64,000 nt of DNA from Chiloscyllium plagiosum. Its lineage: Eukaryota. The stretch spans positions 16,165,831 to 16,229,830 of the forward strand of contig NC_057749.1 in assembly GCF_004010195.1 (NCBI RefSeq), read 5' to 3'. Shown piece after piece: positions 4,129 to 62,224 of this stretch. Position numbers and translations under genes: made by a program. Below the pieces are notes generated by a model that was given only the letters and a program-made list of their open reading frames with translations, was not told the origin of the DNA and ran no database searches. How positions within the stretch are numbered: the stretch's first letter is position 1; every line of letters starts with the position of its first letter.

Positions 4129-5748
4129 ATGACAACGAGAATGTGTTTAATGATGTAACCATGTACAAGCGCCTACCAGCTGAAGCTCAACTGAACTTCA
4201 AACAGGCACTAAACTGGCTTTGTCATTTGAAAATGCGGCAAGTGGAGCTATAGAATTGTAGGATATTCCAATGGAAAGTAAGCTTGGGGAACACCACTTG
4301 AGAAAAGGCAATTGCACAGCCTCACTCAGGACATATCCTGAACAGAGGGAGTCCAGGTCAGCTCACACCAAAACCCCAAAACAAAGCCAGCCCTCGGCCA
4401 AATGGTTAAAATTTTCTTCAGGATCGAGGCCAGCAAGCCATTGGAGTTGCTGCCTGTGTGCAGACTCGAGACAGCAAAAGAGTCCCACTAGACTTAAATT
4501 GAATCAGAAAACTCATAAACTGGTATTCAGGAGAGAGTACACCTCAGAAAGTCCACCTAGATCTGGCTTGGATCAGTTAAATTGCTTAGCAATATACAAA
4601 CAGAACCAATCAAAATAATCGAATTAACTGGTCACCCAGTTCAAAGGGAGATCGACACTGGTACAGCCATTACAGTGATTACAGAACCAGTCTTTAACCA
4701 AATTCACTTTTGGACTCCAATCCTTAAGTTTGCACAAGACCTCAACCAGACTATATCAGGGAACTTTTACAGATTAAGGGGACTACTTATGAGAAACACT
4801 GGTTCAGTTACCACTGATTGCAGTAAAAGACTTGGACCCAAGTTTGATGGGGCAAAATTGGTTGAGAAACATTCACCTTTCCAATTAGAAAATGGCTGCC
4901 TGAGTTATGTCCTAATTAAATACCCAGACATTTTTCAGGAAGGTTGAGGAACTATCAAAGGAGCCAAGGCCACCTTGCATCTTGACCAGGAAATAAGGCC
5001 CACGCATTGCCATTTGCCTCAGGGGCCAAAGTAGAGGCAGGAATCAGAAGGCTGGAAAGGGAAGGAACCATCAAACCAGAACAGATTACGGAATGGGCAG
5101 CACCGGTCATACCGACTGTGAAGCCTGACGGGTTGGTTTGCCTTGGTGGGGATTTTAAACAAATGGTAAATTGCCTTTCACAGCTGAATAAATATCCAAT
5201 CCCTTGCATAGAGGATTTATACACAAAGCCAGTGGTGGTGGTGGTGGGTGGGTTGGGGGGGAGTGGGGAGGCGGGGGGATCTGTCTTCATGAAGCTGGAC
5301 ATGGGCCTTGTGTTCTTGCTAGTGTGGTTAGATGAGGATTCCCAGAAGTATGCTACAATTAATACCCATAAGGGTTTGTACCAAATAATGAGACTGCCAT
5401 TTGGGGTATCATCAGCCTGTCCAACTTTTCAGTGGGTGATAAAGAACATTTTACAAGGTCTACCCCAGTCACCATTTTTCAAGATGACATGCTACTTGGG
5501 CTAAAGTAGTTTTAACAAGACTGGATTACACCTCTTGGAAGATAACATGAGGGCAATCAAAAGTGCCACCGATCTCATGTCTCTAATAGAGTTTAGGTCT
5601 TTACTTGAGCTGGTGAATTATTACGGAAAGTTCACACATAACCGGCCCCCATCCTTACACCTTGCACCAACTTCTAAAAAGGGGTCGGCCTTGGGAATGG
5701 TTATGTAGCCATCCATAATTTTCAGAGAAGTGAAGGACCAGCTATCAC

Positions 5749-8607: not shown

Positions 8608-8922
8608 GGGTGTAGGTTTGCTCGCTGAGCTGTAGGTTTATTATTCAGACATTTCATTACCGGGCTAGGTAACATCATCAGTGGCGACCTCCAAGTGAAG
8701 CGAAGCCCTTGTCTCCTGCTTTCTATTTATATCTTTCTCCTGGATGGGGTTCCTGGGGTTTGTGGTGATGTCATTTCCTGTTCATTTTCTGAGGGGTTAA
8801 TAGATGGCATCTAGATCTATGTGTTTGTTTATGGCGTTGTGGTTGGAGTGCCATGCCTCTAGGAATTCTCTGGCATGTCTTTGCTTAGCCTGTCCCAGGA
8901 TAGATGTGTTGTCCCATTTATC
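8608..8922 (-). mobile_element. 3' fragment of a second Penelope-like family with a hammerhead motif
   Basis: Minus strand encodes WDNTSILGQAKQRHAREFLEAWHSNHNAINKHIDLDAIY (GIY-YIG C-terminus). Flanked by the 12-bp direct repeat AGTCTTCATTTA (8596-8607 and 8923-8934). Confidence 0.8.
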
Positions 8923-9314
8923 AGTCTTCATTTATCAAATACGGGGATGATGATAGAAAAACTGCATGCATCTTTTGCAATAGATGGACTGCTGGAGGTG
9001 TCGGTCACAGATAACGGACCATCGTTTACCAGCAAGGAATTTGAGTATTTCCTAAAGTTGAATGGTATTCAACACATAAAGACAATTGCATACCATCCAT
9101 CATCAAACAGAAGGAGCAGTCCAAACTTTGAAGGCTTAAAGAGACAGCATACAGCTTCACTAGATACCAAACTGCCCCGGTTCCTATTTGATTATAAGAC
9201 CAGCCCTCATGCAACAACAGGGATATGTTCAGCAGAGTTGCTACTGGGGAGGAGACTCCACACCAGGCTAAATCTGATCTTCGCTGCCCTGTGGGAGAGA
9301 ATACAACATGATCA

Positions 9315-9625
9315 GGAACTCCATAATATTTCCCTTCCCTTTCTCTGTAACCTCCTTCAACTCAACAATCCTGAACAATCTCTGCACTGCTCAAAATCTA
9401 GTCTTCAAAGCACTCCTGATTATAATCCCTCCAGTAATGGTGAAGACATCTTCAGTTGCCTGAATCCTGACTTAGGAATTCCCTCCGTAAACCTCTTCCC
9501 CTCTTTAATGTTTTCTTCCCTTAATACTTGCCAAAAAATCTATCTCTTTGGCCGAGCCTCTCACTCACTCAACTTGCAATGATTTGTTATGTGAAAGGCA
9601 CTAGAAATGTGAGTGGCTGTTGTTT
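9315..9625 (+). mobile_element. Old L2-like LINE 3' end
   Basis: Similar to 52975-53315 (ctccat..ccctt..tctctgtaacctcctt..ggaattccctcc.taaacctct..tctctttggcc.agc..ttgttg tail). Family call is by recognition only. Confidence 0.5.
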
Positions 9626-42010: not shown

Positions 42011-42127
42011 GTGGAGTTGGTTCAGTTGGTGGTTGATGGAGTCAACTATTTAATTGAGTGTGAGAAGAGACTCCAGCGTGGACAAGATATCAAAATTCCG
42101 GCACCTATAGCTCAGAGCCGACGTTAA
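42011..42127 (+). CDS. CKMT1: Mitochondrial creatine kinase, coding exon 9 (stop)
   Basis: [38 protein letters not shown]; 117 nt. Exons sum to 1254 nt = 417 aa + stop with consistent phases. Confidence 0.97.
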
Positions 42128-42216: not shown

Positions 42217-42222
42217 AATAAA
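42217..42222 (+). terminator. Candidate CKMT1 polyadenylation signal AATAAA
   Basis: First AATAAA after the stop, about 90 nt downstream. Confidence 0.5.
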
Positions 42223-42344
42223 CACCCTGACCATGTGAACTACAAAATGCTGTTGACTCTTTGTCAACCTTATCAAGTGATAGTGCATCCTGAAGTAAAA
42301 TATGGTAATTGTGCCTTTCCCTATTATACTCTGTCCCATCATTG

Positions 42345-42680
42345 TGTGAGGGAATCACAGACACAGACCCCCGTCCTATCACCGTGTAGGGAAATCACAG
42401 ACACAGACCCCCGTCCCATCACCATGTGGGGGAATCACAAAGACCCCCGTCCTATCACCGTGTAGGGAAATCACAGACACAGACCCCCGTCCCATCGCCA
42501 TGTGGGGGAATCACAGACAAAGACCCACGTCCTATCACCATGTGGGGAAATCACAGACCCCCCTCCCTGTCACTGTCTGGAGGAATCACAGACACAGATC
42601 CCCATTCTGCCACTGTGTGGGAGAATCACAGACACAGACCCCTGTCCCTTCACCAATGGGGGAATTATAGATAAAGACTC
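42345..42680 (+). repeat. ~38-bp minisatellite
   Basis: Units gggaaatcacagacacagacccccgtcctatcaccgtgt. Confidence 0.88.
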
Positions 42681-43064: not shown

Positions 43065-43530
43065 ATTTATAAGAATGTTATCAGGGTTTCAGCTATAGGG
43101 AGAGTCTGAATAGGCTGAGGCTGTTTTCCCTGGAGCATTGGAGCTGAGGAGTGACCTTATAGAGGTTTATAAAATCATGAGGAGCATGGATAGGATAAAT
43201 AGACAAGGTCTTTTCCCTGGGGTGGGGGAGTCCAGAACTAGAGGAAATAGGTTCAGGGTGAGAGGGGAAAGATTTAAAAGAGACCTAAGGGGCAACCTTT
43301 TCACACAGAGGGTGGTACGTGTATGGAATGAGCTTCCAGAGGAGGTTGGTACAATTACAGCATTTAAAAGGCATATGGATGTGTATGTGAATAGGAAGGG
43401 TTAGGAGGGATATGGGCCAAATGCTGGCAAATGGGACTAGATTAGATTGGGATATCTGATCGGCATGGACGAGTTGAAACAAAGGGTCTGTTTCCATGCT
43501 GTACATCTCGATGACCCTGACTCTATGCTG
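43065..43530 (+). mobile_element. CR1 3' end
   Basis: ORF 43138-43404 LRSDLIEVYKIM...ESRTRG...FTQRVVRVWNELP. Confidence 0.9.
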
Positions 43531-43550
43531 TAGGTTCCAGTCACCCAAAG

Positions 43551-43610
43551 AACCCCTCATTCAGAGTACCAACCCCTCATTCAGAGTACCAACCCCTCAT
43601 TCAGAGTATT
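43551..43610 (+). repeat. 3 x 20-bp tandem repeat
   Basis: (aacccctcattcagagtacc)x3, last unit ending ...gtatt. Confidence 0.85.
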
Positions 43611-44059
43611 AACAATCTGCAGGAATGGTAAGAAATGTTTTTGGTAAATTAGGAAGCATCAAAGTTTAATTTACCAACAATTGGTTGTTATAGGCTGAGC
43701 ATTTTCATTTGATAATTCACATGCTTTGACCAGAGCGGATATTTCTTTTGCAGTTAATGTCCACGTATCCCTGATATTGGGTCTCGTGTCTGTCAGGTCG
43801 ATCTGTTGAACATTTTTCTTTCAGGAGGATTGAACTATCAGATTAGAAATAATGTCTTAACCGCAGCCACTGGGAAACAGTTCAGATACAGCAGTGAACA
43901 ATCTGTTGGAATTCTAGGCCATTCCCTTTCTGACTTGGACATGTCCTGGTTGGTGAGGTCTTGTTGTATTTTCACATACAGATAATCTCCTGTTACCTGT
44001 CAATTAAAATGATCCCAGTGTTTCAATATCAGAAAACCAATTGCTGGTTGGTGTATTGC

Positions 44060-44230
44060 TGGTGATCAATGCCCATTATTAATGAGCAATGCCCATTATT
44101 GATGATCAATACCCATTGTTGGAGATTAATGCCCATTGTTGGCAATCAATGCCCATTATTGATAGTCAATGCTCATTACTGGTGATTAATGCTCATTGTT
44201 GGTGATCAATGCCCATTACTGGATGGTCAC
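44060..44230 (+). repeat. 20-bp minisatellite (~8 units)
   Basis: ggtgatcaatgcccattatt variants. Confidence 0.85.
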
Positions 44231-45172
44231 TGGCCATTGGTCAGTGACATTTGCCACTGGGGAGAGAAGTCACTGATCACTATGAACGCTGAGTGACCAT
44301 TCTCAGAGATTCCATTCTGTTGCCAGGGCTCACTGACCATTCCCAGGGATTCCAGTCCATTGCCAAGGCTCAGTGACCATTTGCAGGATCAGGTTGGTAT
44401 TGGACTCAGCCTCACAGTGCTGCATGACTGTTATGCCTCTGAGCAGGAACTGTTCTCTGCTGGAAGGATGCTGATCGTGGCCTCACCAGAGGATTCCTGA
44501 AGAGTGAGGAATCCACAGGGAACACTCGGGATGCTGGCTTTGGCAAATCTACAACAAGAAAAAGAGACAACAAACCATCTGCATCAGCTCCTACTCTTCA
44601 ACCTGTTGGGTTTAGAACGAGTAAACATTGTTAAACCTGATCCAGCCTACTTTACGTTGTAACGTGTTCCCTCTCTCTCTCTATTACATCCTTCCCCACT
44701 GCCTTTCTCATTCCGTCTCTCTCTCTCTCTATTACATCCTTCCCCACTGCCTCTCTCATTCCCTCCCTCTCATTATTACGTCCTTCCCCACTGCCTCTCT
44801 CGTTCCCTCTTTCAGTGTTTCTCTCCTTTCCTTGCTGTTCTGAGCTGATTCCCCTTTTCTCGCTCTCCTTTCTATATTCCGAGCCTGCAGCTATCATATC
44901 CTTGTCTGGGATTATCAAGGCCTAGGCAGACAGCAAGATGAAAGGTGCAATGGAGCTGTTTGAAGCTTAGGGAGGAAACAGAGTAGGAAGGGAGGAACCA
45001 AGTGGATGAGAACAATATAGTGTTGCCCTGTCCTGGAAGGTGCCGTCGCTCTGTTGGGCTACAGGACCTATTGTCATATTTCACATAGTGACCCCCCCCC
45101 CCACTCTGTGTGCATTGTGTGGAGACAGCAGTGAGTGGAGTTATCACTTTTTCCTTACCCAATACAGCCACA

Positions 45173-45450
45173 TGTTACATGGGGTGGGGGAGGAGGGGGG
45201 GCTCTCTAAGTTGTGGTTTCTGTATTTTCCCCCTGTGAGGATTTTCCCCTTGAAGAGAGGTTTTAAGACAGAGGTGTAGAGCTGATTACTGAAGCCCATA
45301 AAACAAAACACTTGTGAGGCCTGGAGTTTATTCTTTGAAATTTGGAACAATAAAGGCAGCCTCCCACGGAACCAGGATTTTTAGGTTTAGTTTCTCAGGA
45401 GCTGGGGAATTGAAACTGGGCTTGGAAGCTGCAGTACATCTCTGCCTGCT

Positions 45451-45488
<38 letters not shown>

Positions 45489-45866
45489 CCTCTCAGGGTT
45501 TTGTCTTCATGTTTTCCCTTTTGGACTGGAGAATCATCTGTGAGACAATGTATTTTACTGCATTTGCCTTTGTCAAGGGGGCATTTGTGGGATGTTACTG
45601 CATTGGAACGGTTACCATTTAGTAGCTAAATAATCTATTATTCCGTTAAGATTTCCAATAGAGTTAAGTTTTCCCAACTTCATCTTTCTTTTCTTTTATT
45701 TTAACTAGAGTAGATGAATAAAGTGCTTTCCTTAATGCCGAACAGTTTGACCAATCAAATTGCATCTGGAATGCAATGTCCAGCACCTGCCTTTAAAATG
45801 AGAAAATATTAGGGTCTAGACTATCATCTGGATACAGTTTGAAGGGCTTTGCTCTGATCCATAACA
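45173..45866. mobile_element. Possible solo LTR
   Basis: TGTTA...TAACA inverted termini, internal AATAAA (~45717) and a (CT)n tract. No matching TSD found. Confidence 0.4.
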
Positions 45867-46474
45867 CTCTCAGTCAGAGTTAGGAGTTGCTATCAAGATG
45901 TCTCCAACTGATGGGGGCATGGGGCTATTCCAATTAAGAGGGGTTCTCCACACCCAACAGGGACAACTATCCCATCGGATGACAATCCTTAATTCCAAGC
46001 CAGTGCTCTGCTCACCACATGTGGGAATTGTCTGGATAGAGGATGTCTGGATGCCCTCTACAGGAGTGGGAGGCAGCAACTAGCTGGAGCTGGAAAGCAC
46101 TTCCTGGGAGCATGGAGACAATGGGTCAATCCAGACTTCCAATAGGGAACTTGAGGGATATCTGGAAAGGATGAAAATGTGCAGGGTCATGGCTTACAAT
46201 GGGGGGAACGGCACTGAATGACACCCGCAGAGCAGGTTCAGATCCAATGGGCTGAGTGGCCTCCTCCTGCTTTGTACATTTCAGTGATTCTGTGCGGAAG
46301 CCAATGGCTGACCTATCCCCTAACTTAAGTCACCACCCTCCCTTTAAATCCGGACGCATCGATTGCAGAATAAACCAGTCAGGTGCTGCTGCATCGACTC
46401 AGATTCTTGCTCATTTCTGTCAGAAATGTGAAACTATCTGAAGGTGGACTTGGGCTCCAGCCCCACACTCAGAA

Positions 46475-47695
46475 TCAAACAGGGACAGAGCTACCTCGAC
46501 GAGTGGAGAAAGGGGCTGAGCCATCGCCAACATCAGCCTGGCTTCTGGCGATGCCCCCGTTGTGGGTGGTGCCAGCCAGCCTTGGGGCATCTTCCGAAGC
46601 TTGTTGAGCGGAGAGTCGAAACCAGAGGCGCATGTTCTCCCTGAGACAGTGCCTGAACTGGCGGTTCAGGAGAGCGTAGAGGACGGGATTCAGAGCACAG
46701 TTCACAAAGGTCAGCCAAGTGGCCAGGAAGTCCAGCATTCTGGGAGGTTTACTGTCCGACAGGGAGCTGCAGTGAAAGTTCAGAACGAAGTAGGGAAGCC
46801 AGGTAACCAGGCAGGTTGTTATCACAGCAACTATGGTTTTCGCTGTCTTGGACTCCATCGCTACATCGGAAGGGCTGCTGGCGTTCAGATTAAACGTCGA
46901 ACTGGAAGACATGAAGCTCGCCCACTTCCTTGAAAGACTTGCCTGCAACAGCCTGAAAGACTTCAGTTCACTGGGAATGGAGCCGTCTCCTGACCCAGGG
47001 GACAGGCTGCTGGCGAGACGCTGGGCTTTATACTTCATGTGGTCACGGGTGACCTGGTAGATTAAGTAATAGGAGATGGTGACTATTAGCAAAGAGGTCA
47101 GGTAGATCCAAATGAAGAGGTAGATCCCATACGCCAGACTGGATCCTCCATCAGGCCAACTGAAGTCACACAAATACCTGGTGGGAGAAAACTTATAGAG
47201 CCCAATGCCAAAGAGTGGTGGGATTCCACAGAGCAGCCCACTCCACCACAGGAAGACAATCGTCTTGAGAGCTCTGTCCCGGGTTATGGTGAGGATGAAG
47301 GGCCTCGCAATTACATAATATCTGTCCACTGCAATGCCAGCCACCGACAGGATGGAGACGTTCCTCAATGAGAAGGTTAGGAAGCCCGAGATTTGGCAAA
47401 ATGTCCCACCAAAAGGCCAACTCTGGGCAATGGTTGCTATGACAATGACAGGCAGGCCTAAAAGAGTGATCAGAAAATCAGCCAGGGCCAGGGAGGTCAC
47501 AAATGCATTGGTGATGCTCCTCAACGCTCGACACTTGTAGACCAACAGCAGGACCAGGGTGTTCAACGGAAGGCCAATGATTAGGATGAGTAGATAGAGA
47601 ATTGCCTGGGTGGCGGTTTCTGCCAATAATGGTCGAGGTTGTCCACTGCTGTTGGATCCAAACCCTGATGGGATCCCACTGTGAAGATTGCTCAT
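46475..47695 (-). CDS. Class A (rhodopsin-like) orphan GPCR, 406 aa, intronless CDS; GPR161/GPR135-like
   Basis: Seven hydrophobic segments with N1.50 (GLPLN), LALADF, WPFG..FC, VDRYY, W4.50, ECL2 Cys, TWLPY and NPVLY, plus helix 8 (NRQFRHCL) and N-terminal sequon NSS. The first true ATG is 47695; the ORF track starts at a GTG 12 nt earlier. No stops or frameshifts. Confidence 0.93.
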   Translation of the reverse strand: MSNLHSGIPSGFGSNSSGQPRPLLAETATQAILYLLILIIGLPLNTLVLLLVYKCRALRSITNAFVTSLALADFLITLLGLPVIVIATIAQSWPFGGTFCQISGFLTFSLRNVSILSVAGIAVDRYYVIARPFILTITRDRALKTIVFLWWSGLLCGIPPLFGIGLYKFSPTRYLCDFSWPDGGSSLAYGIYLFIWIYLTSLLIVTISYYLIYQVTRDHMKYKAQRLASSLSPGSGDGSIPSELKSFRLLQASLSRKWASFMSSSSTFNLNASSPSDVAMESKTAKTIVAVITTCLVTWLPYFVLNFHCSSLSDSKPPRMLDFLATWLTFVNCALNPVLYALLNRQFRHCLRENMRLWFRLSAQQASEDAPRLAGTTHNGGIARSQADVGDGSAPFSTRRGSSVPV

Positions 47696-47949
47696 CTTTA
47701 ATGTCACTGGGAGTATTCAATTCAAAACTAGTACTTTCATGAATTCAGTCAGCTCCCTGATTCCCAGTAACCTTGGGGCTCAAGTCATAATCGTCAGCTT
47801 CACTTGTAGAGAGAGTAACACACAGTCATTCCGTTGGAGTTACCTTCATCCTTTCCCAGTGGAATGAGTTGGTCAGCTGTAACCTTTTGCAAATAACTAA
47901 CTGTAGGATGGAGACAGAAAAGCTTACTGCCCACAAACCTCCCTCAGAA

Positions 47950-48340
47950 TCACGACATTCCAGATTCAAATACCATATCAGGGTCTGAACATAGAGATTA
48001 AAGCTGACACTGCAGGGCAGCTCTGAGCGAGTGCTGCATTATCGGAGGGGCAGCCCTGTGGACACGAGGTTAATCCAAGGCTCTAACTGACTGCTCAGCT
48101 CTCAGTGTAGCAAATGGTAACATGGCATCATCTGAAAGAGGAGCAGGGAATCTCTGCCCACTGTCCCGGCCAATATTGATCCCTCGGTTAACATCACACA
48201 AAAGGAAACGATTTTCTGGTCATTATCGCATTGCTGTTGGTGGGATCTTGCTGTGCTCTATTTCCTTCATTACGACAGTGATTACGCTTCATTGGCTATG
48301 AAATTCTGTGGGGCAGCTGGTGAGAAACGCTGAGCTCAGT
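47950..48340 (+). mobile_element. Old Deu-domain SINE (SacSINE1/AmnSINE-like)
   Basis: gctgacactgcagggcagctctgagcgagtgctgca..ggagg..gaggagcaggg..tgtcccggccaatattgatccctc..cattgctgttggtgggatcttgctgtgc. Related copies at 62480-63050 (+), 63720-63940 (-) and 19500-19620 (-). Confidence 0.65.
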
Positions 48341-48659
48341 CTCTCCTTTTCCTTCCGAACCTCACTCAGTGAACAATGCAGTTCTTGAAGGGATTCCTCC
48401 CACCCCTCCAGGCACCAGGTCCCAGTCACCAGTCACTGGTCACCAGTCAGTGATTTCAGATGGTCCCGCTGATCCTGCAGCTTAGTTCCAGCAGCCGATG
48501 ACCAGCCTCGGGAGACAATTGGCTCCTGTCAACCAGAAAACATACAAAGAAATGTGGGCATCTGTAGTTCCATCATTAACATTCCTGCTCAGGACAAGGA
48601 AATTGGGAGACATTTTTATCCCAATATCCAGGATGGAAAGATCACTTAATCTGAACTAA

Positions 48660-48885
48660 GAATATCTTTTCTCCATCAGCACCACTACCCACTATCCCAC
48701 CCTCCACCAAACGATTGCATAAATGCAGTCCCGTCCACACTTCACCAGCTCTGATGAAGAGTCATCTATATTGGAAATGTTGGATGCTCTCTCGTCATGG
48801 ATGCTGCCTGACTCCTTTGGGATCTCCAGCATTTTGTTGATTTTCAGTACAGATTCCCACATCCGCAGTAAGCTGCTCCAACTAA
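48660..48885 (+). mobile_element. Old Penelope-like pLTR remnant
   Basis: ctCTGATGAagagtc...GAAAtgtt followed by ggatgctgcctgac..ctccagcatttt. Confidence 0.55.
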
Positions 48886-49144
48886 GGAATGATCAGTGAC
48901 TGGCAAAGGTCTTCAGTTTGATTTTGTGACAGTGTATTTATGATGATATAAACACTTCAAAATGATGAATGGCGAGGAGTCGGGGTGGGGTGGGGGGGGA
49001 ATTACTCTCACAGACACAACCCCAACATCCTGGTGGCTACATGGAGCTGTGAGCCCCTCCCTCCTCCCATCACTGTCAGACCCAGCCCAGCCCCATCTCC
49101 ACACCATCCATTGCAGAGGGAATGAAAAGGCACTATTGAGCCAA

Positions 49145-49530
49145 CAGTTATACAGAGCACCGGTGAGACCACATCTGGACAGCCGTGTACAGTATAGGTC
49201 CTCTAATTGAGTAAATGCTGTAAATATGTTGGAATCAGCTCAGAGATGTTTACTGTTCAATACCTGGAATGGGTGGAAAGGGAAGGCTGGACAGGCTCGG
49301 TTTGTATCTGCTGGAGGTTTCAGGAATAAATGGCAACTTGATTAAAAATGTATCAGATCCTGAGGGGTCTTGACAGGGGAGATGTGGAGAGGGTGTTTCC
49401 TCCTGTGGGGGTATCTTGAACTGGACATCATTGTCTGAATATCAAGGGTCACCCATTTACTCTGTAAAATCTCTTTCTCTCAGAGGGTCGTGAGTCTTTG
49501 GTACTCTCCATCTGGAAGGCGGCAGAAGCA
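49145..49530 (+). mobile_element. Old CR1 3' fragment
   Basis: LYRAPVRPHLD..VQY; cagagggtcgtgagtctttgg. Confidence 0.7.
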
Positions 49531-49932
49531 GAAAGGCTGAAGGACAGAGCACGGAGTGGGGTGGAAGGGGTGAGAAATGTGGATCTGAGGTTACAGTCAC
49601 ATCAGCTGCAATCTTACAGAGCAAGTCTGAGAGGATGGAAAACCTTTGCCCCTTTTGTTCATATAAAGAGGAAGAGGGAGGGGGAGCGAGCACAAAGTGT
49701 GAGGTTTGGGTTACAGGTCAGAGGGTGGGCAAAATTAATTAACAGAGATAGGCCCATTGTATTCGTAATGAAATGTGCTGTTCACAATTATAATATGTCG
49801 CCATGTAAAGCTCAAATGGTCAAGGTTGTTGGAAAGAAACAAAGTATTTGCTAAAGTAGGTGTTAATGGCAGAATAAAGACAGCTTTGCACAAAAACAAA
49901 TCAGGAAAACATGCCACAATCTGACATTTGGC

Positions 49933-50288
49933 ATAGTGGCTCAGTGGCTAGTGCTGCTGCCTCACAGCATCAGGGACCCGGGTTCGATTCCAGCCTCGGG
50001 CAACTGTCTGGGTGGAGTTTGCACACTCTCTCTGTGTCTGTGTAGGTTTCCTCCAGGTGCTCCAGATTCCTCCCACAGTCCAAAACTGTGCATTTTGGGG
50101 CGGATTGGCCATGGGAAATTGCCCCTTGTGTCCAGGGATGTGCAGGCTGGGTGGTTAGCCATGGGAAATTTAGAGTTACAGGGATAGGGTAGGAGGTGTA
50201 TCTGGGTGAGATGCTCTTCGGAGGCTCAGTGTGGACTCAATGGGCCAGATGGCCTGTTTCCACACTGTAGGGATTCTATGAATCTATA
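49933..50288 (+). mobile_element. Older HE1-related SINE
   Basis: tagtggctcagtggctagtgctgctgcctcacagc..gggttcgattcc..ggagtttgcac..; gattctatg tail. Confidence 0.85.
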
Positions 50289-52974
50289 AAAAGAAAGCAA
50301 ACTGGGGGAACAGAGTTTATTTTCTGACATTGTTCAGACCAATGTTATGTCTAAGCGTCTGATGAGAAAAGGAGGTGCTGATCGTGCCTGTGTTGGGCTT
50401 CATTGAGCTGACTGAGGACAGAGGTGTGAGTGTCACAGCAAAGTGCATTGAAATGACAAGTGGGCAGAAGATCAGGGTCAACGGCAAAGAGGTTCCGTAA
50501 GGTGATTGACTTGCATCCTGCAAAGTGACAATGAAGAGACTCCCCCCCTCACTTTCAGCCTAGGTTCCATGTCTCACTGACAGATGACATGTCCCACGGT
50601 GCAGCAAGGAAAGGGTTAACCCTGAAGCCAAGTGCAGCTCAATCTCCCACTGCTTATCCAACCAGAAGGAAGCATCCATTAGGCCACTGGATAAAGCAAC
50701 ATTATCCAGAGTCTGTGGTCAATAATGAACCAGCCGTGACAGACAATGACCCACACTGCCCAGAGGCACTGCCACCCCATAGGCCTGAGGCAGCTGCTTA
50801 CTGAACCTGGCACACAAGTGGCAACTCCAGTCCCATTCACCCACACCGGGCATCTTGGACTCATCACAACCCCACCGAGACTGCACTGGGTGTTATGCCT
50901 TACCCGTGCGTTTCAATGAAGGACTGGGGGCAATGAATTAATCCAAATGTACACACCCCACAGAAGCTGGGAACATGACTCACATCTGGTCCCGGGGAGA
51001 GAAAGTGGGAGCCTCCCCCGAGGCATCACTGATCAATTCTTTGGAAACATTACAGAATGTTTGCTGAATATAACTAAAGGGAATCTATCATCTATTCATT
51101 TAAACGCCCCAACACGAGGTGATTCCTGAATCCTTGACTTTCAAAAACATAATTCTTTGGAGAAAAGAGTTCACTTCAAAATAAATCCAAGTCGTTTGTG
51201 CCCTTACCAGCTCAACGTCACTGACTCCACTTCACAACAACTGGGATCTCCCACACTGTCAGAAACACGAAGTTCACCTTCACTTGGGTTTTAGGGGAAT
51301 CTCTGCTCCACGTTTTGCCTCGGGTTTCTCGCTGGGACTCTCACCTCTGCCTCTGTCGTCTTCCTCAAAGTGCAGACATTCTGTTTGAAGATGCAGGCGT
51401 CTGTTTCACTGAGGCTGAGTTAAACTCCACCGCTCCCATTGAAGGAAGTGGCGAGTTTCCTGTCTCTGTCCCATGGCTCCTTTATCAAACTAGCTTTGGA
51501 CAATCCCACTTCACCCTCGGTTTGCTGTTAAAAATCAGTTGGACAGAGAAAGGGAAAGGGACAGAGAGAGAGAGAGGAACCCAGACTGTCACGGACCAAG
51601 CAGAAAATCATAAATATATAGGAGCCAGTTAAGAACTAGACACATGCTACACACTCAAAAGCAAAAAGTAACAAACACAGTGGTAGAAAAACAGAAATTC
51701 AGAGGCACAGATATACTGGAGAACACAGAAAACATAATTACCTTGGAGAGAGAGAATCCGTCACTATGTAAAGTGCAGGGATCTGGTGAACACACTGAGC
51801 CTGTGAAATGGGTATTTTATTCAGGAATAGTTTTCCTATTCCAGTGTTGGTTTGCAGTCTGTGAGAGGCAGGCTGCTGTTTGTTGATATGAAATGACACG
51901 CTTTCTGTTCCGGACGGAGGAAGTGGGCTGACATCAGCTCAGCAAGTGCCTGAACCTGGCCAAGTCTCAAAGTTCTCCTTCCCTGCAGAAGGAAAGGGTT
52001 CAAAATAAAGTCAGCTCTCACTCCTGGCTCTGATCAGGTGACTGGAGGAAGTGGGTGTCAGGCTATAATGGGACTGAGCCAGGCTTATTAACCATCAGAA
52101 TGACAACAGGCAACACACAATGTCCAACAGACACCGGTTTGCTGAAATCAAATCAGTGGGTACTGGAGAAACTCAGTAGCTATATCTCTCATGCTACGTG
52201 TCCCCATGGGTTTTCAATTTTGTACATTTTTGCCTATGAGCATATATTTCAGACTGTACGGTTGTTTGTGTGTGTTTAATTAGCTGTCTATGTACATCTG
52301 TACTTCCGCTGGTCTGTAACATCTGTATGTCTTTCTGAGTATGAGTGTGTATGCCCATCTCTCTCTCTCTCTCTTCCCCTCTGTTGCTGTTGTCTCTTTC
52401 TGTGCATTTCTGTCTCTGCCTGCATGTGTTTATGTTCCTCCAGCTTCTCCCTGGTATTTTTCACATTTACTCTGCCCCCTGTGACCAGCTCCCAGCAGCA
52501 GCTGGAGTGCAGTCTGGCTGTTTGTTTCTAGAATTTCCTGTAAGACTCCAGGGAAATCTATCAGTGTTTTCTGGAAAGGACCCAGCCCCTGAGCTCCTGC
52601 TTGGTCTGGCTTCTTCAGCCTTTCCTTTATTTGAATCTTTGGTTTCTATCCCCTCCCGCCCCCACTCCCCCATGACAAACAGCTTTCTCTGGGCAGGCGG
52701 GAAAGGGTGGATTTGTTCCTTTTGTTCTCAGTTCCGACGCTGCTTAAGGTGCGTCTCAAACACCAAAAGCAAGCGGTTAGCACCAGCGGGACAGTCGGCC
52801 CTGGTCAACTCTGGCCAGCCCCTGCTGTTAACCCCAAGGCCGCTCTTTCCAAAAGGACAGTGAGAGCTGGGCTGGGCCTGTTGCAGTGTTTCAGTCCAAT
52901 GCAAGATGCAGGAACAGCACCTCGTTTTCTGCATAGGCCCTTTCAGCCTTCAGAACCTAACGCTGAGTTCAATA

Positions 52975-53315: not shown

Positions 53316-54082
53316 CTGGCTCTTTCTGGCCCAGCGATTAACATGTGCCTGAGCACTGGGAATGTGTCACACAGATGACAAGGTCACCAGCTGTGACTAA
53401 GAACAATATTCCAAAGCAACAAATGCAGAAAATTCACCAAAACTTAAGGATTAGAAAATAAAACAGGAATTCCTCTGGCAAACCAGAACATGCTGTCAGC
53501 AGCTGAAGGTAAAAGGCAGCATAATGGCTTCAATGCCAACACCTTTACTACCCCAGAACAACAGCCATAACTTTTGAAGCATTTACTTAGCATCTGATCA
53601 TGCTGAAATATAAACAAAACCTGATTAGAATTCTGTAAGGGCTGTGGACTCAAACAGTATTTTCTGTGTGTGTGTGTCCCTACAGCCCAGGGACTGAAGC
53701 AGTTCGTCGCCAGCTTCTCCAGGGTAACTAGGCTTGGAGAATAAAACACTGGACCAGCCAGTGATACCCATCTTGTCAACAAACTGATCAAAACCCAGAG
53801 TGTCGCATTTATGCTTCAGAGCAAGGAACAAAGGAAGACAGCACCCCATTCCCCACAGTTTCTTAAAGAGAGGGAACTTGGGAAGTGTAGATGAGCAAAA
53901 TGACCTGGTTGGTAGGTAGATAGACAGAAATTTAACGTTACTTGTACGTGTGAAAATATAATAAAACGTGTACAATTTGCCACAAAACAACACCATTTAA
54001 GTACCTAAATTATACACTTTAAAAAATAGACAAAATTAAGACAAATATTATTTTTTGTTCATTCCACAACCTCTTGGTTTCA

Positions 54083-54292
54083 CTGCCAAGGACCAGGGTC
54101 CTGTTGAAATTGTCAATGACCAGTGGAGCCTGTCGAACCTGTCAATGACTGGGGGGGCCTGTCAAAACTGCTGAGGACCGGAGTCTGTCGAAACTGTCAA
54201 TGACCGGGGACCTGTTGAAACTGCCAAGGACCAGGGGCTGTCGAAACCGCCAAGGACCAGGGGCTGTTGAAACTGCCAAGGACCGGGGCTGT
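54083..54292 (+). repeat. Degenerate ~26-28-bp tandem repeat
   Basis: actgccaaggaccaggggctgtcgaa variants. Confidence 0.75.
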
Positions 54293-55606
54293 CTGTGCTG
54301 CTGCTTCCTGCAGTCTTTCCCCATTTAAATAACATCCGGCTCTTCCATTCTCCCTGATAAAGTGCATTACCTCACAATTTAAACTTAATTTCCTTTCAAT
54401 TGGCGTTACTCCTCAAGTTCTCATCCCCCTGACAGGTTGTTTAAACCCACCGCAACAGCACCAGAAAACCTCCCTGTGAAGCTATTAGTTCCAATCTTGT
54501 TCAGATGTAACCTGTCCCAGAACTAGACTCAATGCCTCAGATATCTGATGCTCTCCCCCACCTTATCAGTTCTCTGGCCATATATTCAATCTACTGACCT
54601 TATGCCCATTAGCCCATGGCACTGGCGATCTCCAGTCGCAGACAGTGAGTGAAAGTCCTGAGCCTTGCTCCTGGCCAAACTGTTTCAGCGTAGCTACAAT
54701 ATTCGCAATCACCCAACAATTGTTCATGTATGTTCTGTCCACAAACAACAGAGTAAATCTGTTCCAGTCAATTAATGCCCATTAGTCTACTCACAATCAG
54801 TAGTAAAGTGATGGAAGAGATCATTCAACAGTGCTTTTAAGTGACACTTACTCAGCAACATCTGGTACATTGATGCTCTGTTTGATTCCTGTCCTGCCTG
54901 CTCAGTTCCTGACCTCATTACAGCCTTGGTGCAAACATGAACAAGAAGGTTGAACTCCAGAAGCAAAACAGGAGGGTCTGCCTTTGGTATCAAGGTAGCA
55001 TTTGTCTGCGTGTGGCATTAGGGAGCCCGAGGTTATCTGGAATCAATGGGATTCAGATGGTGAAGTCTCCATTGGTTGGAGTCATACCTAATCTCCAGGA
55101 CACTAAGCAGCAGTTCCTCAAGGTAGTCCCAAACATCTTCAGTTGCTTCATCAATGATCTTCCCTCCATCATAAGGTCAGAAGTGGGAATGTTTGCTGAT
55201 GACTGCACAATATTCAGCACCATTTGCAACTCTTCAGATACTGAGGCACTAAATGCAGCTAGACCTGGACAACATCCAGGTTTGGGAGATTAAGTAATAA
55301 TAACATTGGCACCATACAATGAGTCCATCAAACAAGAGAGAATCTCACTGTTGCCCCTTGATGCACAATGTCTTTTCCTTCGCTGAATTTCCTACCATCA
55401 ACATCCTGGAGTGTACAACAGACCAGAAATGAAACCTGGCCAACTACAGAAATATAATGGCTACAACGTTCTGTAATGGGTAACTCACCTCCTGAATTCT
55501 CAAAGCCTGCCAGCCATCGACAAGGCACAAGTCAGGACTGAGGTGGAATATTCCCCACTTGCCTGGATAAGTGCAGCCCCTACAACACTCAACTCTATCA
55601 ATGACA

Positions 55607-57397: not shown

Positions 57398-57403
57398 TTT
57401 ATT
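57398..57403 (-). terminator. Candidate STRC polyadenylation signal
   Basis: TTTATT on + (AATAAA on -), about 63 nt after the stop. Confidence 0.6.
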
Positions 57404-57465
57404 TACTTTCAAATACAAATAAAATACTAGGATCTAAAACCGATGTCAATCCAACTTGAGAGAGT

Positions 57466-57560
57466 TCAGGTCCAGTTCTCCACGAGGTGATAGGTAATAG
57501 ATAGACCCAAGAACAGGATAGCCACCTGGGGCCAGGCTGATAGCACTGCATGATTCTTGC
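57466..57560 (-). CDS. STRC: Stereocilin, last coding exon (hydrophobic GPI-signal-like tail)
   Basis: (G)KNHAVLSAWPQVAILFLGLSITYHLVENWT*; acceptor ctttcag|; phase fits the previous exon; 95 nt. Confidence 0.82.
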
Positions 57561-57725
57561 CTGAAAGTTCAAAGAGAGGTAATGTTTAGCTCAAAATTCT
57601 TTCTTCTTCACTCCAACCCCACCAACCGACGATACTGGCTTTGGCAAGGAGCAATGGCCACATCGTGAGAATGAGCTTAAAGAGGATGTGCCTGAGCTAG
57701 CGGTGAATTGTTAACTCAGATGTAC

Positions 57726-57873
57726 CTCTCTGCTCCTGGTGGATCTCCCCATCATACTGTGCAGTGCTGACAGCTCGCCTCTGCTCTGGGCTCAGCTTCT
57801 CGTACTGTTTGCTGGTCACAGCGGATGCCTGGGCACTGCTCAGGGATGACAGCTGATCGGTATTGAATACAAC
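57726..57873 (-). CDS. STRC: Stereocilin, penultimate exon
   Basis: [49 protein letters not shown]; matches the STRC motif QLSSL.SAQA.AVT..Q...[13 protein letters not shown]; 148 nt. Confidence 0.93.
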
Positions 57874-58745
57874 CTATTGGGGGAAGAGACAACTGAGAAA
57901 CCGTTTGTGTATTCATCACCAGACAGGGCGTGGGAGGCGACTGGAGATGATTGTCAACTTGGAATTTGAAGCTCACAATCAATCAGCACAGGAAGAGACC
58001 ATTCAGCCCAGATTGCCAATGCTGGCTGTTTGACAGATCTATCCAGTTATTTCCATACCCACACCTGCTTCTATCTCTATAATTCTGCATATTCTCCCCT
58101 TTCCAGAATGCATACAACTTCCATTGGGAAGTTATTAATGAATCTGCTTTCACTGCCTTTTCAGGAATGCAGCAACATGCTGTATAGATCAAAGAATCAC
58201 TGTCACCTCCACCTCTCATTCTTTTGCAAGTTACCAATGAATGGATCAGCCATTTGGTACAGAGATGAGGAATTCCTTCTCTCAGAGGATTGAGAATCTT
58301 CAGAATTCCCCACCCGAGAGAGCTCAGTTATGGAGTACATTCAACATGGAGGTTGAGAGAAATGTCGGGCATGAATGAAATCAGGCGATACAGCAATAAG
58401 ACAGGAAACAACGGTGTTAGATTGGCCATGACTTTCTGGAATAGTGGACTCAGGCTGCCCCCTCCCCCCGGCTTCACTCTGTATTTTTGTTCATGTGCAG
58501 CATCACTTAAAAAGATGTCATTGGTTTGTTATCACATTGTGGGATCTTGCTGTGTGCTAGACTAACTACTGCATTTCCTACAATACAACAGCAACAATTC
58601 TTCAAAAGGACTTCATTGACTGTAAAGCAATTTGTGGTATCCTAACATCACCAAACGAGGGGCTAAATAAATGCAAGTATCCTCTTTTGCTCTCTGTACC
58701 CAATGTTATTGCAATGGAAAGCGAGTTTAGCATTTGAAGACTTAC

Positions 58746-58843
58746 TGCAAATTTGCTCGGGACGATGAGCGAGATGGCTGAAGGTGTGAGTCCTTCAATC
58801 TGTTGCTCCACTAGCGATGACAATGTGACGTCAGGTAGTCCAG
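58746..58843 (-). CDS. STRC: Stereocilin exon
   Basis: (A)GLPDVTLSSLVEQQIEGLTPSAISLIVPSKFA; cacag| acceptor, |gtaagt donor; 98 nt. Confidence 0.93.
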
Positions 58844-58944
58844 CTGTGAGAGAAAATGATCCAATGGGTTTTCTCAGACACTGCATAGTATCATACAACA
58901 CACAGCCCATGAACTGGACTGACAACAATGAACATCATAAATCA

Positions 58945-59312
58945 GATGACTGTCTGTCTTTGCGTCTGTGTACGTATGTGTCTGTGTCTATGTTTGTCTG
59001 TGTGTCTGTCTGTGTGTCTGTATATGTGTGAGATGAAGAGCTTATGCTGGGAGTGTGTGTGTCTCTCTGTCTGTCTGTCTATGAATCTGTCTGTTTGTCT
59101 GTGTGTGTGTCCCTGTCTATGTGTCAGCGTGTGTCTCCCTCTATGTCTGTGTGTGCGTCTGTGTCTGCGTGTGCATCTGTCTATGTGTGTCTGCCTGTGT
59201 GTGTCTGTATCTCTGAATGTGTCTGTATGTCTATGTGTCAGTGTGCGTGTGTCTGTGTGTGTCTGTCCATATCTGTCTGTGTGTATCAGTTTGTCTGTCT
59301 GTGTGTCTGTGC
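58945..59312. repeat. Low-complexity (TG/TGTC)n tract
   Basis: Direct inspection. Confidence 0.92.
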
Positions 59313-59324
59313 TTGCCATGCACC

Positions 59325-60150
59325 ATAAACCATTAGAAATAAGGACAGGATAAGGCCATTCAGCCCCTTGAGCCAACTCAGCCACGCAACAGCACCATGG
59401 CTGATCCAACATCCCTCACATCCATTTTCCTTCCTCTGTAACCCTTGATGCCTCAACTGATCAAGAATTTCTCAGTCTTAAATATACACAAGGATTCTAC
59501 CCCCACAGATCTCTCTGTGGCAAGGAGTTCCAAAGACACACAACCCTCTGAGAGAAGGAATTTCTCTTTACCTCAGTCTTAAATTGGTGCCCCTTTATCC
59601 TGAGACTGTGCCCTCTGGTCCTAGACTCTCCCATGAGGGGGAGCACCCTCTCAGCATTGACCCTGTCAAACCCCTTAAGAATCTGATACATTTTAATGAG
59701 ATCACCTCTCATTCTTCTAAACTCTAGTTATTAGTCTCAACCTGTTCGGCTTTTGCTCATAAAACCATCCCTCCAGACCAGGATAACGAAACAAAGAGCT
59801 GTGGATGCTGGAGATCTGAAACAAAAACAGAAATTGCTGGAGGAACTCAGCAGGTCTGGCAGCATCAGTGGGAGGAAAGCAGAGTTAGCTCTTCAAGTCC
59901 AGTAACTCTTTATCAGAGCCCCTCCATACTAGGGATCATTCTAGTGATCCTTGTCAGAACTGCCTCTTCTGAACTAATATATCTTCTTAAATAAGGCAAC
60001 CAGAACTACTCCCAATACTCCAGCTATGGTCTCCCCATCATCTTGTACAGTTCCCTATTCTTACCCTCCAACCCCTTGAAATAAAGGCCAACAGCCCATT
60101 GGCCGTCCAGTTTACCTGCTGTCCATGTATGCTAGCTTTCTGGGTTTTGT
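59325..60150 (-). mobile_element. CR1 3' region with a nested Penelope pLTR piece (~59785-59920)
   Basis: ORF 59497-59712(-) MRGDLIKMYQILKG..ESRTRGHSL..FSQRVV.LWNSLPQ. Confidence 0.85.
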
Positions 60151-61013
60151 GAACAAGTAACCCCCATTCCGCCAAGTCCCTAGTCACCAATAGGCTGCTG
60201 CAAAAAAATGATCATTTCCAAAGTAACCGAAGGAAATCACTTTGGGATGCCCAGAGGATATGAAACGCAAGCTGTTCCATTTCCTCCTTCAATTTTTTTC
60301 AAATAGATGCTTGCCCTTAGCAATTTCAAACTGAGAAAGCAGTGGGACTTGAGGCTGAAGCAGCAGAAACCAGCTCAGAAAGAGCTCGTTTCTCTCTGAC
60401 AAATCCTCCCAATGTTGGCCTCACCATGGTAAGTCTTGTAGATATTTTCTCATCAACCCATTCATGGATGTTAGTACACACAGCTCTGATGTAGGTGGGA
60501 CTTGAACCGGGCCTCCTGGCCCAGACGTAATACCACTACCACTACCCCTTGTGAGATCACCCTGATGACACAGTGTCAGAGTTCAACTTGTTGCAGCCCA
60601 GCAACCAATCCACACAAACACACCATCATCCATTCCAGAAAGAGGAACAGGCCACACAATAAAAGCATGATTGATGTGATATTAACCTCAACACTACATT
60701 CCTGCATCCCCCCATCAATCTTTCATCCATTTCATGGGCAATTAGGGATGAGTAACAAGTGCTGGCCTTGTCAATGACATCCACATTCCACAACAGCAGA
60801 AATGGATAAGATTCCAGCTGGGAGGTGTCTGAAATGGACAACGTGAAGCTTTATCCTGTTCCTCCTCAGATTCCCACTGCTCCGTCCAGTATCAGGGAAG
60901 CAGCTTCACTCTATTACCAGGCCCTGGCCACCCCCTCAATGACGAGAACTGAGCAGGGCCCTTCCCAAACTCAGGCTCCATTCCCAATAGGATGAAGACA
61001 TTGATCCCATTAC

Positions 61014-61162
61014 CTGCAATGGAGCCAATTTCGGTGAAGATTTCAGGGCCCCAGTTGCTGACCAGCCCGAAGGCCTGGGGCAGGGTGGTGAGATGGGCCA
61101 GGGCCTCCAGCTGGGCTTCAGAGCAACTCAGCTTCAAACCCCCAAGGAACAAGACGGCCTTA
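61014..61162 (-). CDS. STRC: Stereocilin exon
   Basis: (S)[49 protein letters not shown]; ttacag| acceptor, |gtaatg donor; 149 nt. Confidence 0.95.
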
Positions 61163-61334
61163 CTGTAATGAAGAGAAGCAGCCTGTGAGCCAGCCAGACA
61201 CAGCATCTTCCTGTTTTAATTCACTCAAATTAAAATTTCACCAACATCAAACTTTACTCATTTTGTTAAGAGCTAATCAAGGTGAGGGGTATGAGGAGTG
61301 GTTAAAATCTCATTTTCAAGCTTCAGTGCCTTAT

Positions 61335-61665
61335 TAAACACTCCCAGGACAGGAACAGCACAGGGTTAGGTACAGAGTAAAACTTCCTCTACTGTTCCCC
61401 ACTCCCAGGACAGGGACTGCACGGGGTTAGATACAGAGTAAAGACCCCGTCAAACACTCCCAGGATGGGGACACCATGGTGTTAGAGACATTGCAAAGCT
61501 GCCTCTATACTGTTCCCTATCAAAAATCCCCAGGACAGGGACAGCATTAAGTTAGAGACTTTGTAAAACTCTCTCTACACTGTTCCCCATCAATATCCCC
61601 AGGACAGGGAAGCATGGAGATAGAGACATTGTAAAGCTGCCTCTACACTGTTCCCCATCAAACAC
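61335..61665 (-). repeat. ~60-bp minisatellite, reverse orientation
   Basis: Reverse complement of the 24180-24838 unit (aaacactcccaggacagggacagca..ttagatacagagtaaa). Confidence 0.85.
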
Positions 61666-62081
61666 TGCTGCAGCAGGATTGGATATTTTGTTCCCAGTGT
61701 GGTTGGTGTTCAATTCTGCAGCAGTGTACTGCCACAGGGCAATGGGAGCTTGGTGTCAGTTCAAGGGAAAGGAAGAGTTTGGTTGGTGTGTTCAGTGCTG
61801 ATCCAGAGGGGATGGATGTGATGTTGCAGCCATGAACAATGTGGGGCGTCTGGTATTTACCTGCCCCTCCCAATCCCAGCCGCAGTTTGTGGAGAACAGG
61901 TTAATCTGTTAAACTTCCCTTTCAGCTCTCTTAGCTGAGTGACCCTTCACCCCAGAGGGCAGACAGTCGTGGAAGGAAGATTGAAAAGAACAACAAAAAA
62001 AAAATCCCTTCCATCCAGTGAGGAAATTGAAGTTGAAATGATGAATTGGATAATGGTCCCCACCGTTCCCTTCTTCCTGAC

Positions 62082-62224
62082 CTGAACTCCTCAGGATTGA
62101 TCCTCTCGATCTCAGTGACTGCCATCCCACAGATCAAATGTCCCAGTGCGGTGAGGGTCGTGGCATCGAGCTCTGACACGGACTGCCCTCCCCGTCGGAG
62201 GAAGCTGCTAAATCCTGCCCTTCT
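62082..62224 (-). CDS. STRC: Stereocilin exon (most 5' exon recognised in the window)
   Basis: RRAGFSSFLRRGGQSVSELDATTLTALGHLICGMAVTEIERINPEEF; ttctag| acceptor, |gtcagg donor; 143 nt. Confidence 0.92.

Follow-up and report, generated by a model that had tools for sequence, protein, structure and literature searches.

The window analyzed here is a stretch of 64,000 nucleotides from Chiloscyllium plagiosum (RefSeq assembly GCF_004010195.1, contig NC_057749.1, positions 16,165,831 to 16,229,830 of the forward strand), and all coordinates below are counted from its first letter. On the minus strand, 46475-47695 holds an open frame of 406 codons that begins with ATG and matches the Pfam 7tm_1 family with an E value of 8.9e-50 and a score of 170 bits (cut-off 30.5). 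Creatine kinase exons occupy 20370-42222 on the plus strand (stop at 42127, AATAAA at 42217), tail-to-tail with the receptor, and four of the six plus-strand open reading frames tried from the kinase region matched ATP-gua_Ptrans families in Pfam; we take this neighbor to be CKMT1 rather than another creatine kinase, to judge by the human protein. On the other flank, at 57398-62224 on the minus strand, lie the last exons of a stereocilin-like gene that ends in a hydrophobic, GPI-signal-like tail (stop at 57466, AATAAA at 57398-57403). The name of this gene, presumably STRC, likewise goes by the human protein; searches of Pfam, the Atlas and the PDB returned no stereocilin name for these exons. 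An open reading frame at 51839-52033, considered as an STRC exon, was dropped, the actual last exon being 57560-57466.

The original prediction had placed the receptor about 10 kb downstream of STRC, in the same orientation and amid decayed transposable elements. This picture holds, as the stop at 57466 is about 9.7 kb from the receptor ATG, exon 1 of the receptor lies ~6 kb past the STRC-like polyadenylation signal, and LINE and LTR remnants are found around the gene. Elsewhere in the window there are many LINE fragments, and decayed LTR-retrotransposon pieces occur at 4561-5504 and 8863-9582, with reverse transcriptase and integrase matches below the Pfam cut-offs. Degenerate tandem arrays with periods of 40, 20 and 26 are found at 42333-42665, 44055-44381 and 54082-54293. 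In human, where CKMT1 and STRC were said to have no GPCR between them, probes for CKMT1B, STRC and CATSPER2 are the only ones named for the deleted block in the accessible part of PMC10668944.

Gene Structure

The frame had been described as a clean 406-aa seven-TM ORF; the open frame and the seven TM helices are borne out but the length is not, the true protein having 445 residues. Relatives are ~445 residues long and diverge from the 406-aa reading at residue 401, and residues 401-406 of that reading are intron read-through beyond a GT donor at 46494, after codon 400. A tblastn search with the tails of the relatives located a further coding exon at 44548-44412, preceded by a polypyrimidine tract and an AG. 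The gene has three exons, of which the 406-aa ORF represents one. Once spliced, the coding sequence (445 aa) is identical to RefSeq XP_043536385.1 from C. plagiosum, labeled 'GPR161-like', and the database model GCC33810.1 (406 aa) contains the same intron read-through.

All parts of the gene are on the minus strand. Exon 1 is non-coding and covers 51208-51308 or beyond, with a GT donor at 51207 and a 5' end that may lie further out. Intron 1 (48526-51207, 2682 nt, GT-AG) is followed by exon 2, consisting of a 5' UTR part (47696-48525) and a coding part (46495-47695) for residues 1-400, which include the seven TM helices, helix 8 and the start of the tail. Intron 2 (44549-46494, 1946 nt, GT-AG, phase 1) begins with the bases that were misread as the final six codons and the stop of the 406-aa frame. 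Exon 3 encodes residues 401-445 and the stop at 44412-44548, a 100% match to the tail of XP_043536385.1, and continues into a 3' UTR (44411-43552, at least to 43552) that holds two degenerate 20-mer tandem arrays. The leader made up of exon 1 and the UTR of exon 2 is at least 931 nt long and contains 16 upstream ATGs. At 47696-47716, three relatives are modeled with a seven-residue N-terminal extension, the upstream ATG of which reads ATA here. In the tail exon (44412-44548), missing from the 406-aa reading, an RxRxxS kinase-type motif is present in 10 of the 20 chondrichthyan rows scanned.

Transcript Evidence and Sequence Constraint

Four sequencing runs, the tissues of which are coded, were compared with 43400-52200; one of these, X5, comes from a relative that is ~3.5% diverged. 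A single 2979-nt X5 contig spans 48526-46495 and 44548-43552, including the 5' UTR part of exon 2 and the 3' UTR of exon 3, with intron 2 absent at the predicted bases, and in a second contig 51308-51208 runs directly into 48525 with a GT-AG intron left out, the skipped stretch ending in CT..AC on the plus strand. The RNA status of X5 is listed as a guess, but intron removal this exact shows it to be RNA. The near full-length contig has a word depth of 22.8, in a bulk-type run, and shows that the receptor gene is expressed in some tissue of the X5 relative. X1 and X9 yielded nothing but short pieces at low depth, some of them intronic, and the single-cell run X16, sampled at ~2%, gave 707 reads on the region and 0 on the coding exons.

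Since two GT-AG introns are spliced out the gene is not a retrogene, contrary to one of the origins first suggested for it, that of a lineage-specific retrogene. Orthologs are present, moreover, in chimaera and amphioxus, and no paralog that might be a close parent gene exceeded 76 bits in a single-sequence protein search. In eight chondrichthyans, TM1-4 are 66-93% and TM6-H8 63-90% identical to the window protein; beyond the closest relative the figures drop to 13-65% for the N-terminus and 20-56% for the tail. In the C-terminal half at least 16 coding differences separate the window from X5, those listed comprising 11 non-synonymous and 5 synonymous changes; the resulting pN of 0.021 and pS of 0.030 are weak evidence of constraint in this half.

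Distribution of Orthologs

A single-sequence search returned 26 matches, 14 of them chondrichthyan (58-96% identity, 355-862 bits), with the next match at 76 bits. With cluster members included, the orthologs come from 21 named species of cartilaginous fish, of which 13 are sharks, 7 are batoids and one is the elephant shark, and in 20 of the 21 the model is a full 7TM protein, that of Rhinoraja ending in TM6. The names attached to these orthologs conflict, ranging over GPR161-like, No18, somatostatin, histamine H2, octopamine, tyramine, 5-HT1E and LPA receptor, with substance K also among the automatic names. Because each copy carries a different misleading name the group is invisible as a group; the receptor is already modeled in databases, yet unrecognized as one family.

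In a profile scan of 1.84 billion representatives, three chondrichthyan rows were followed by Branchiostoma at 336 bits, four tunicate orthologs (Styela, Phallusia, Clavelina and Ciona) at 223-271 bits and the ENA protein P0049 at 248 bits. After these six non-chondrichthyan family members, all well above the GPCR background, came DRY-less proteins, mostly unnamed, in a group that includes the soft coral Xenia, and mammalian GPR161 scored 127-131 bits. The shark receptor is 42% identical to the amphioxus protein versus 29% to marmoset GPR161. The scan gave 147 new matches, of which 20 are named and 127 unnamed; 137 were placed by tree and 10 longer than 700 residues were omitted. Word-indexed searches missed amphioxus even with amphioxus in the query, and in a representative-based scan of this kind an ortholog of ~50% identity could hide inside the shark's own cluster. 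An Atlas search with the receptor returned generic class A clusters only. P0049 and a second ENA protein, P0201, are family members called whole on long metagenome contigs and could extend the family beyond chordates; a search for relatives of P0049 gave 4 matches, none named, and of 110 pattern matches obtained in metagenome contigs from the family alignment 0 were confirmed.

No bony-vertebrate or cyclostome copy rose above background in four protein searches, all of predicted proteins. It had been suggested that an ancient receptor lineage was kept in cartilaginous fishes and lost in mammals. The first part is substantiated and, with the amphioxus and tunicate orthologs and a cnidarian-containing sister group, extended; the absence from mammals also holds for the predicted proteins searched, but not its restriction to them, as these yielded no copy from any bony vertebrate. 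Because the protein searches are empty for both bony vertebrates and cyclostomes the loss would fall on the bony-vertebrate line, before mammals, and the receptor was probably lost in bony vertebrates. We regard it as unlikely, though worth keeping in mind, that the gene persists unannotated or over-diverged in some bony vertebrates or cyclostomes, with a later and patchier loss; such a history draws support from searches confined to predicted proteins, and from a family member, P0049, that is without a named relative, and is countered by the 0 bony-vertebrate rows above background when chimaera and skate proteins of 58% identity were found immediately.

Phylogeny and Identity

Trees were calculated with FastTree from 150 rows and with IQ-TREE from 50 chosen rows and 265 columns. 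The chondrichthyan, amphioxus and tunicate proteins together with P0049 form one 12-row clade (100/99 in IQ-TREE, with FastTree in agreement), and its sister consists of five DRY-less rows including Xenia (96/98 in IQ-TREE). GPR161 from mouse, marmoset and Saccoglossus falls in another clade, next to an invertebrate sister group of its own (99/98), amine and peptide receptor rows are separate clades as well (100/100 and 100/99 in IQ-TREE), and five opsin-type rows are placed apart by FastTree. Forcing the shark rows together with mammalian GPR161 changes the fit by -110 log units (p-AU 3e-50), and forcing the 12-row clade together with the whole GPR161 group gives an AU p of 0.012, in keeping with the earlier remark that the receptor could not be matched to GPR161 as a one-to-one ortholog. 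The sister group including Xenia (P0052-P0054, P0056, P0099 and P0100), in which the Asp of DRY is replaced (SRY, HRY, YRY) and Trp6.48 is Leu, is probably an unnamed cnidarian receptor family. Two further proteins, P0072 and P0108, form an amphioxus-containing GPCR pair, labeled 5-HT1D-like, that lacks Asp3.32 and has a branch of its own.

Several other identities can be weighed against these trees. GPR161 is the best PDB match by both sequence and fold and several RefSeq names read GPR161-like, but the low identity to marmoset GPR161 compared with amphioxus, the AU test on the shark rows and the two spliced introns make it hardly conceivable that the gene is the GPR161 of sharks or a retrogene confined to their lineage. 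The automatic names (octopamine, histamine H2, 5-HT1E, somatostatin, substance K) point to a receptor for amines, peptides or light, which is very improbable; such receptors do crowd the PDB match lists, but residue 3.32 is Thr here and Asp in 6 of 6 amine rows, residue 7.43 is Phe and not the opsin Lys, and the amine and peptide clades and the opsin-type rows all lie elsewhere in the trees. A slowly evolving ohnolog of GPR135 or GPR45/63, with the amphioxus gene ancestral to both and the fast copy kept by bony vertebrates, is also improbable, if less so. The likeness to GPR135, GPR45 and GPR63 lies in TM2, TM6 and TM7 only, and since none of the tree rows could be identified as a vertebrate GPR135, GPR45, GPR63, GPR101, GPR21/52 or melatonin receptor the tree does not by itself decide against orthology to GPR135, GPR45/63 or GPR101. 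Against an ohnolog of GPR135, GPR135 motifs occur in 0 of the 150 best profile matches; by this check GPR135 scores less than 125 bits, lower than GPR161 and much lower than amphioxus, and a co-ortholog would need a divergence exceeding that of the tunicates. The same motifs were found in 0 of 221 collected proteins, and a degenerate primer for a GPR135 motif had 0 matches in metagenome contigs, so that the GPR135 question comes down to score. GPR45/63/135 are grouped as a set of orphans, and GPR101/161 as another group, in the available text of PMC6504862.

The identity that we favor, and with some confidence, is that of a class A orphan GPCR in an orthology group of its own, apparently a single gene in the chordate ancestor, which was kept by amphioxus, tunicates and all three cartilaginous-fish lineages and, as we infer, lost toward bony vertebrates. 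An ancient orphan family of its own, together with the mechanism proposed below, is in our judgment the likely best explanation as a whole.

Signature Residues

The AlphaFold model (mean pLDDT 65, TM blocks mostly 70-93) has seven helices followed by helix 8, with ECL2 in two strands and the tail disordered, and its best PDB match, by sequence and by fold, is the GPR161-Gs complex. With generic positions read from alignments, these class A hallmarks are in place: N45 (1.50), D73 (2.50), C100/C176 (3.25-45.50), D124-R125-Y126, W151 (4.50), W299/P301 and N336-P337-Y340. The receptor is a class A (rhodopsin-like) GPCR.

The family is set apart by Arg3.36, a pocket residue that is family-specific in the alignments (Arg111, codon at 47363-47365 on the minus strand) and is found in 27 of 29 family rows, with Gln in chimaera and Ciona, versus 0 of 136 outgroup rows. 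Pro5.50, common in class A if not universal, is present in 1 of 14 family rows versus 131 of 136 outgroup rows, and Phe34.51 in 13 of 14 versus 10 of 136. An acidic residue is found at 6.30 in 13 of the 14 rows and at 7.35 in all 14, and Asp3.32 in 0 of 29. Position 7.43 is Phe330; Lys7.43 occurs in 0 of 14 family rows and 5 of 136 outgroup rows, and because this lysine is missing covalent retinal binding is impossible.

The second strand of the ECL2 hairpin, encoded at 47156-47173 on the minus strand, carries Leu175, Cys176 (45.50), Asp177 and Trp180, aligned gaplessly to Met177, Cys178, Val179 and Trp182 of GPR161. Trp180 is present in 29 of 29 rows and the hairpin appears in the AlphaFold model; the match to a GPR161/GPR101-type hairpin, with its end Trp on Tyr6.51, is one of sequence and predicted secondary structure only. 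Outgroup rows also show the trio of ECL2 Trp, Tyr6.51 and Trp6.48 (34 of 136) and Gln/His5.68 (52 of 136); both are weak markers because of this frequency, and the trio is probably ancestral in that part of class A. Position 45.51 is acidic (Asp/Glu177) in 21 of 21 chondrichthyan rows and in 0 of 8 invertebrate rows; of these eight, seven carry Arg3.36. Residue 174 (47174-47176) is Tyr here versus a second ECL2 Cys, two before the disulfide Cys, in 18 of the 21 chondrichthyan rows.

The residues of the GPR161 sterol site, Ile7.52, Trp7.56 and Arg8.51, correspond to Leu339, Leu343 and Arg348, so that the site is not reproduced, and no counterpart of the C-terminal amphipathic PKA-RI-binding helix is predicted, the model having no helix past residue 365 (pLDDT <50 there) and the tails being unalignable with that of GPR161. 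By hydrophobic moment, neither ICL3 nor the tail shows a strong amphipathic helix. Within ICL3 an island at 46913-46963 (residues 245-261), predicted helical, is 82-100% conserved in sharks, far above its flanks, with similar basic-aromatic stretches in tunicates but not amphioxus; it is a possible regulator binding site. A basic stretch at TM5-ICL3 resembles the GPR161 ciliary targeting motif, a likeness too generic for use.

Comparison with GPR161 (PDB 8KH4, 8SMV), the best match in sequence and fold, brings out likenesses as well as differences. The two share the gapless ECL2 with Cys45.50 and a Trp at C+4, as well as Tyr6.51, Trp6.48, Arg8.51 and the lack of the amine Asp. They differ in that they are 29% identical and belong to separate clades, and in that the shark receptor has Arg3.36 for Ser, Leu for the sterol Trp7.56 and no Pro5.50, keeps Asp2.50, Glu6.30 and NPxxY, and has no predicted AKAP helix, at low model confidence in the tail. 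GPR101 (PDB 8W8Q), rank 18 among the fold matches, is comparable in its type II beta-sheet ECL2 relay, as given in the accessible portion of PMC12444479, but is 19% identical in the fold alignment and has Leu as its toggle where the shark receptor has Trp. The opsins share a hairpin lid over the pocket, and the rhodopsins of squid, spider and cattle are among the higher fold matches, but Lys7.43 distinguishes them from the family.

Proposed Mechanism

In the receptor as we picture it, from sequence and model, ECL2 would form a beta-hairpin lid tied down by the Cys3.25-Cys45.50 bridge, with Trp180 at its end packing on Tyr6.51 above the toggle Trp6.48. This is the relay that serves self-activation in GPR161 and GPR101: the contact of the ECL2 Trp with Tyr6.51 above the toggle is described as self-activating for these two receptors in the parts available of bioRxiv 10.1101/2023.05.23.540554 and PMC12444479. 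A real off state would be expected here because Asp2.50, NPxxY and the Arg3.50-Glu6.30 pair are kept, unlike in GPR161. The buried Arg3.36 would place a positive charge in the pocket, for which a carboxylate, sulfate or phosphate is the likeliest partner, and the ligand may be a small lipid-like molecule or metabolite that enters under or beside the lid. A positional analogy is offered by the niacin receptor HCAR2, where the Arg at 3.36, also Arg111, anchors the ligand carboxylate according to the accessible text of PMC10628104, a single-position likeness to a distant, Gi-coupled receptor on another branch and outside the top matches listed. The output would most likely be Gs/cAMP, given Phe34.51, His/Gln5.68 and a long TM5, and the long leader, with 16 ATGs upstream of the coding sequence, suggests that translation is low and regulated. 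Tentatively, as a proposal that may well prove wrong, we put forward a receptor with a lid and a genuine off state, tuned or switched by an anionic small molecule on Arg111 and signaling through Gs.

A somewhat less probable reading dispenses with an outside ligand: the ECL2 plug would activate the receptor as in GPR161 and GPR101, Arg3.36 would pair with Asp177, and control would be exerted through expression, possibly in cilia. The gapless ECL2 match, the retention of Trp180, Tyr6.51 and Trp6.48 and the Asp/Glu at 45.51 in every chondrichthyan row speak for this reading; it is harder to reconcile with the eight invertebrate rows, non-acidic at 45.51, seven of which carry Arg3.36, with Leu343 in place of the sterol Trp7.56, with the retention in sharks of Glu6.30, Asp2.50 and NPxxY, absent from mammalian GPR161, and with a tail in which no helix like the AKAP segment of GPR161 is predicted, at low model confidence. 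Co-expression with stereocilin, be it in hair cells, the lateral line or electroreceptors, finds no support here and is a long shot. The receptor is on the same strand as the STRC-like gene, its exon 1 a short distance past the polyadenylation signal, and its orthologs occur in chordates that possess ciliated sensory cells; this is adjacency only, however, and the receptor has its own first exon.

Building on the ligand-tuned receptor, one can speculate, at a probability well short of even, that the origin of the family predates the cnidarian-bilaterian split. Before chordates radiated it would have acquired the pocket Arg and given up Pro5.50; it would detect an anionic lipid or metabolite by way of its opsin-like lid and use cAMP as its signal, in sensory cells with cilia or in neural cells, in lancelets, sea squirts and sharks alike, and bony vertebrates would have dropped it entirely.

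Concluding Remarks

A literature search by accession, title and start of abstract found nothing on this receptor family, which may still be listed in a table of shark, amphioxus or Ciona GPCRs. The word 'shark' is absent from the main text of PMC6504862 as available, and GPR135 and GPR161 are still listed as orphans in the part consulted of PMC13494238. Surveys of vertebrate GPCRs based on bony vertebrates and lamprey miss the receptor. The ancestor of jawed vertebrates had a receptor that bony vertebrates seem to have lost, which runs counter to the usual picture of bony-vertebrate gain. Lying near GPR161, GPR101 and the opsins, with their lid but with a charge in the pocket and the off-state lock still intact, the family lends itself naturally to testing whether orphans that activate themselves arose from ligand-gated receptors, and the tunicate and amphioxus orthologs make its function testable. 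If an ancient anionic-ligand family is indeed what has been found, it would represent a lost chordate signaling system, open to deorphanization and to knockout in Ciona.
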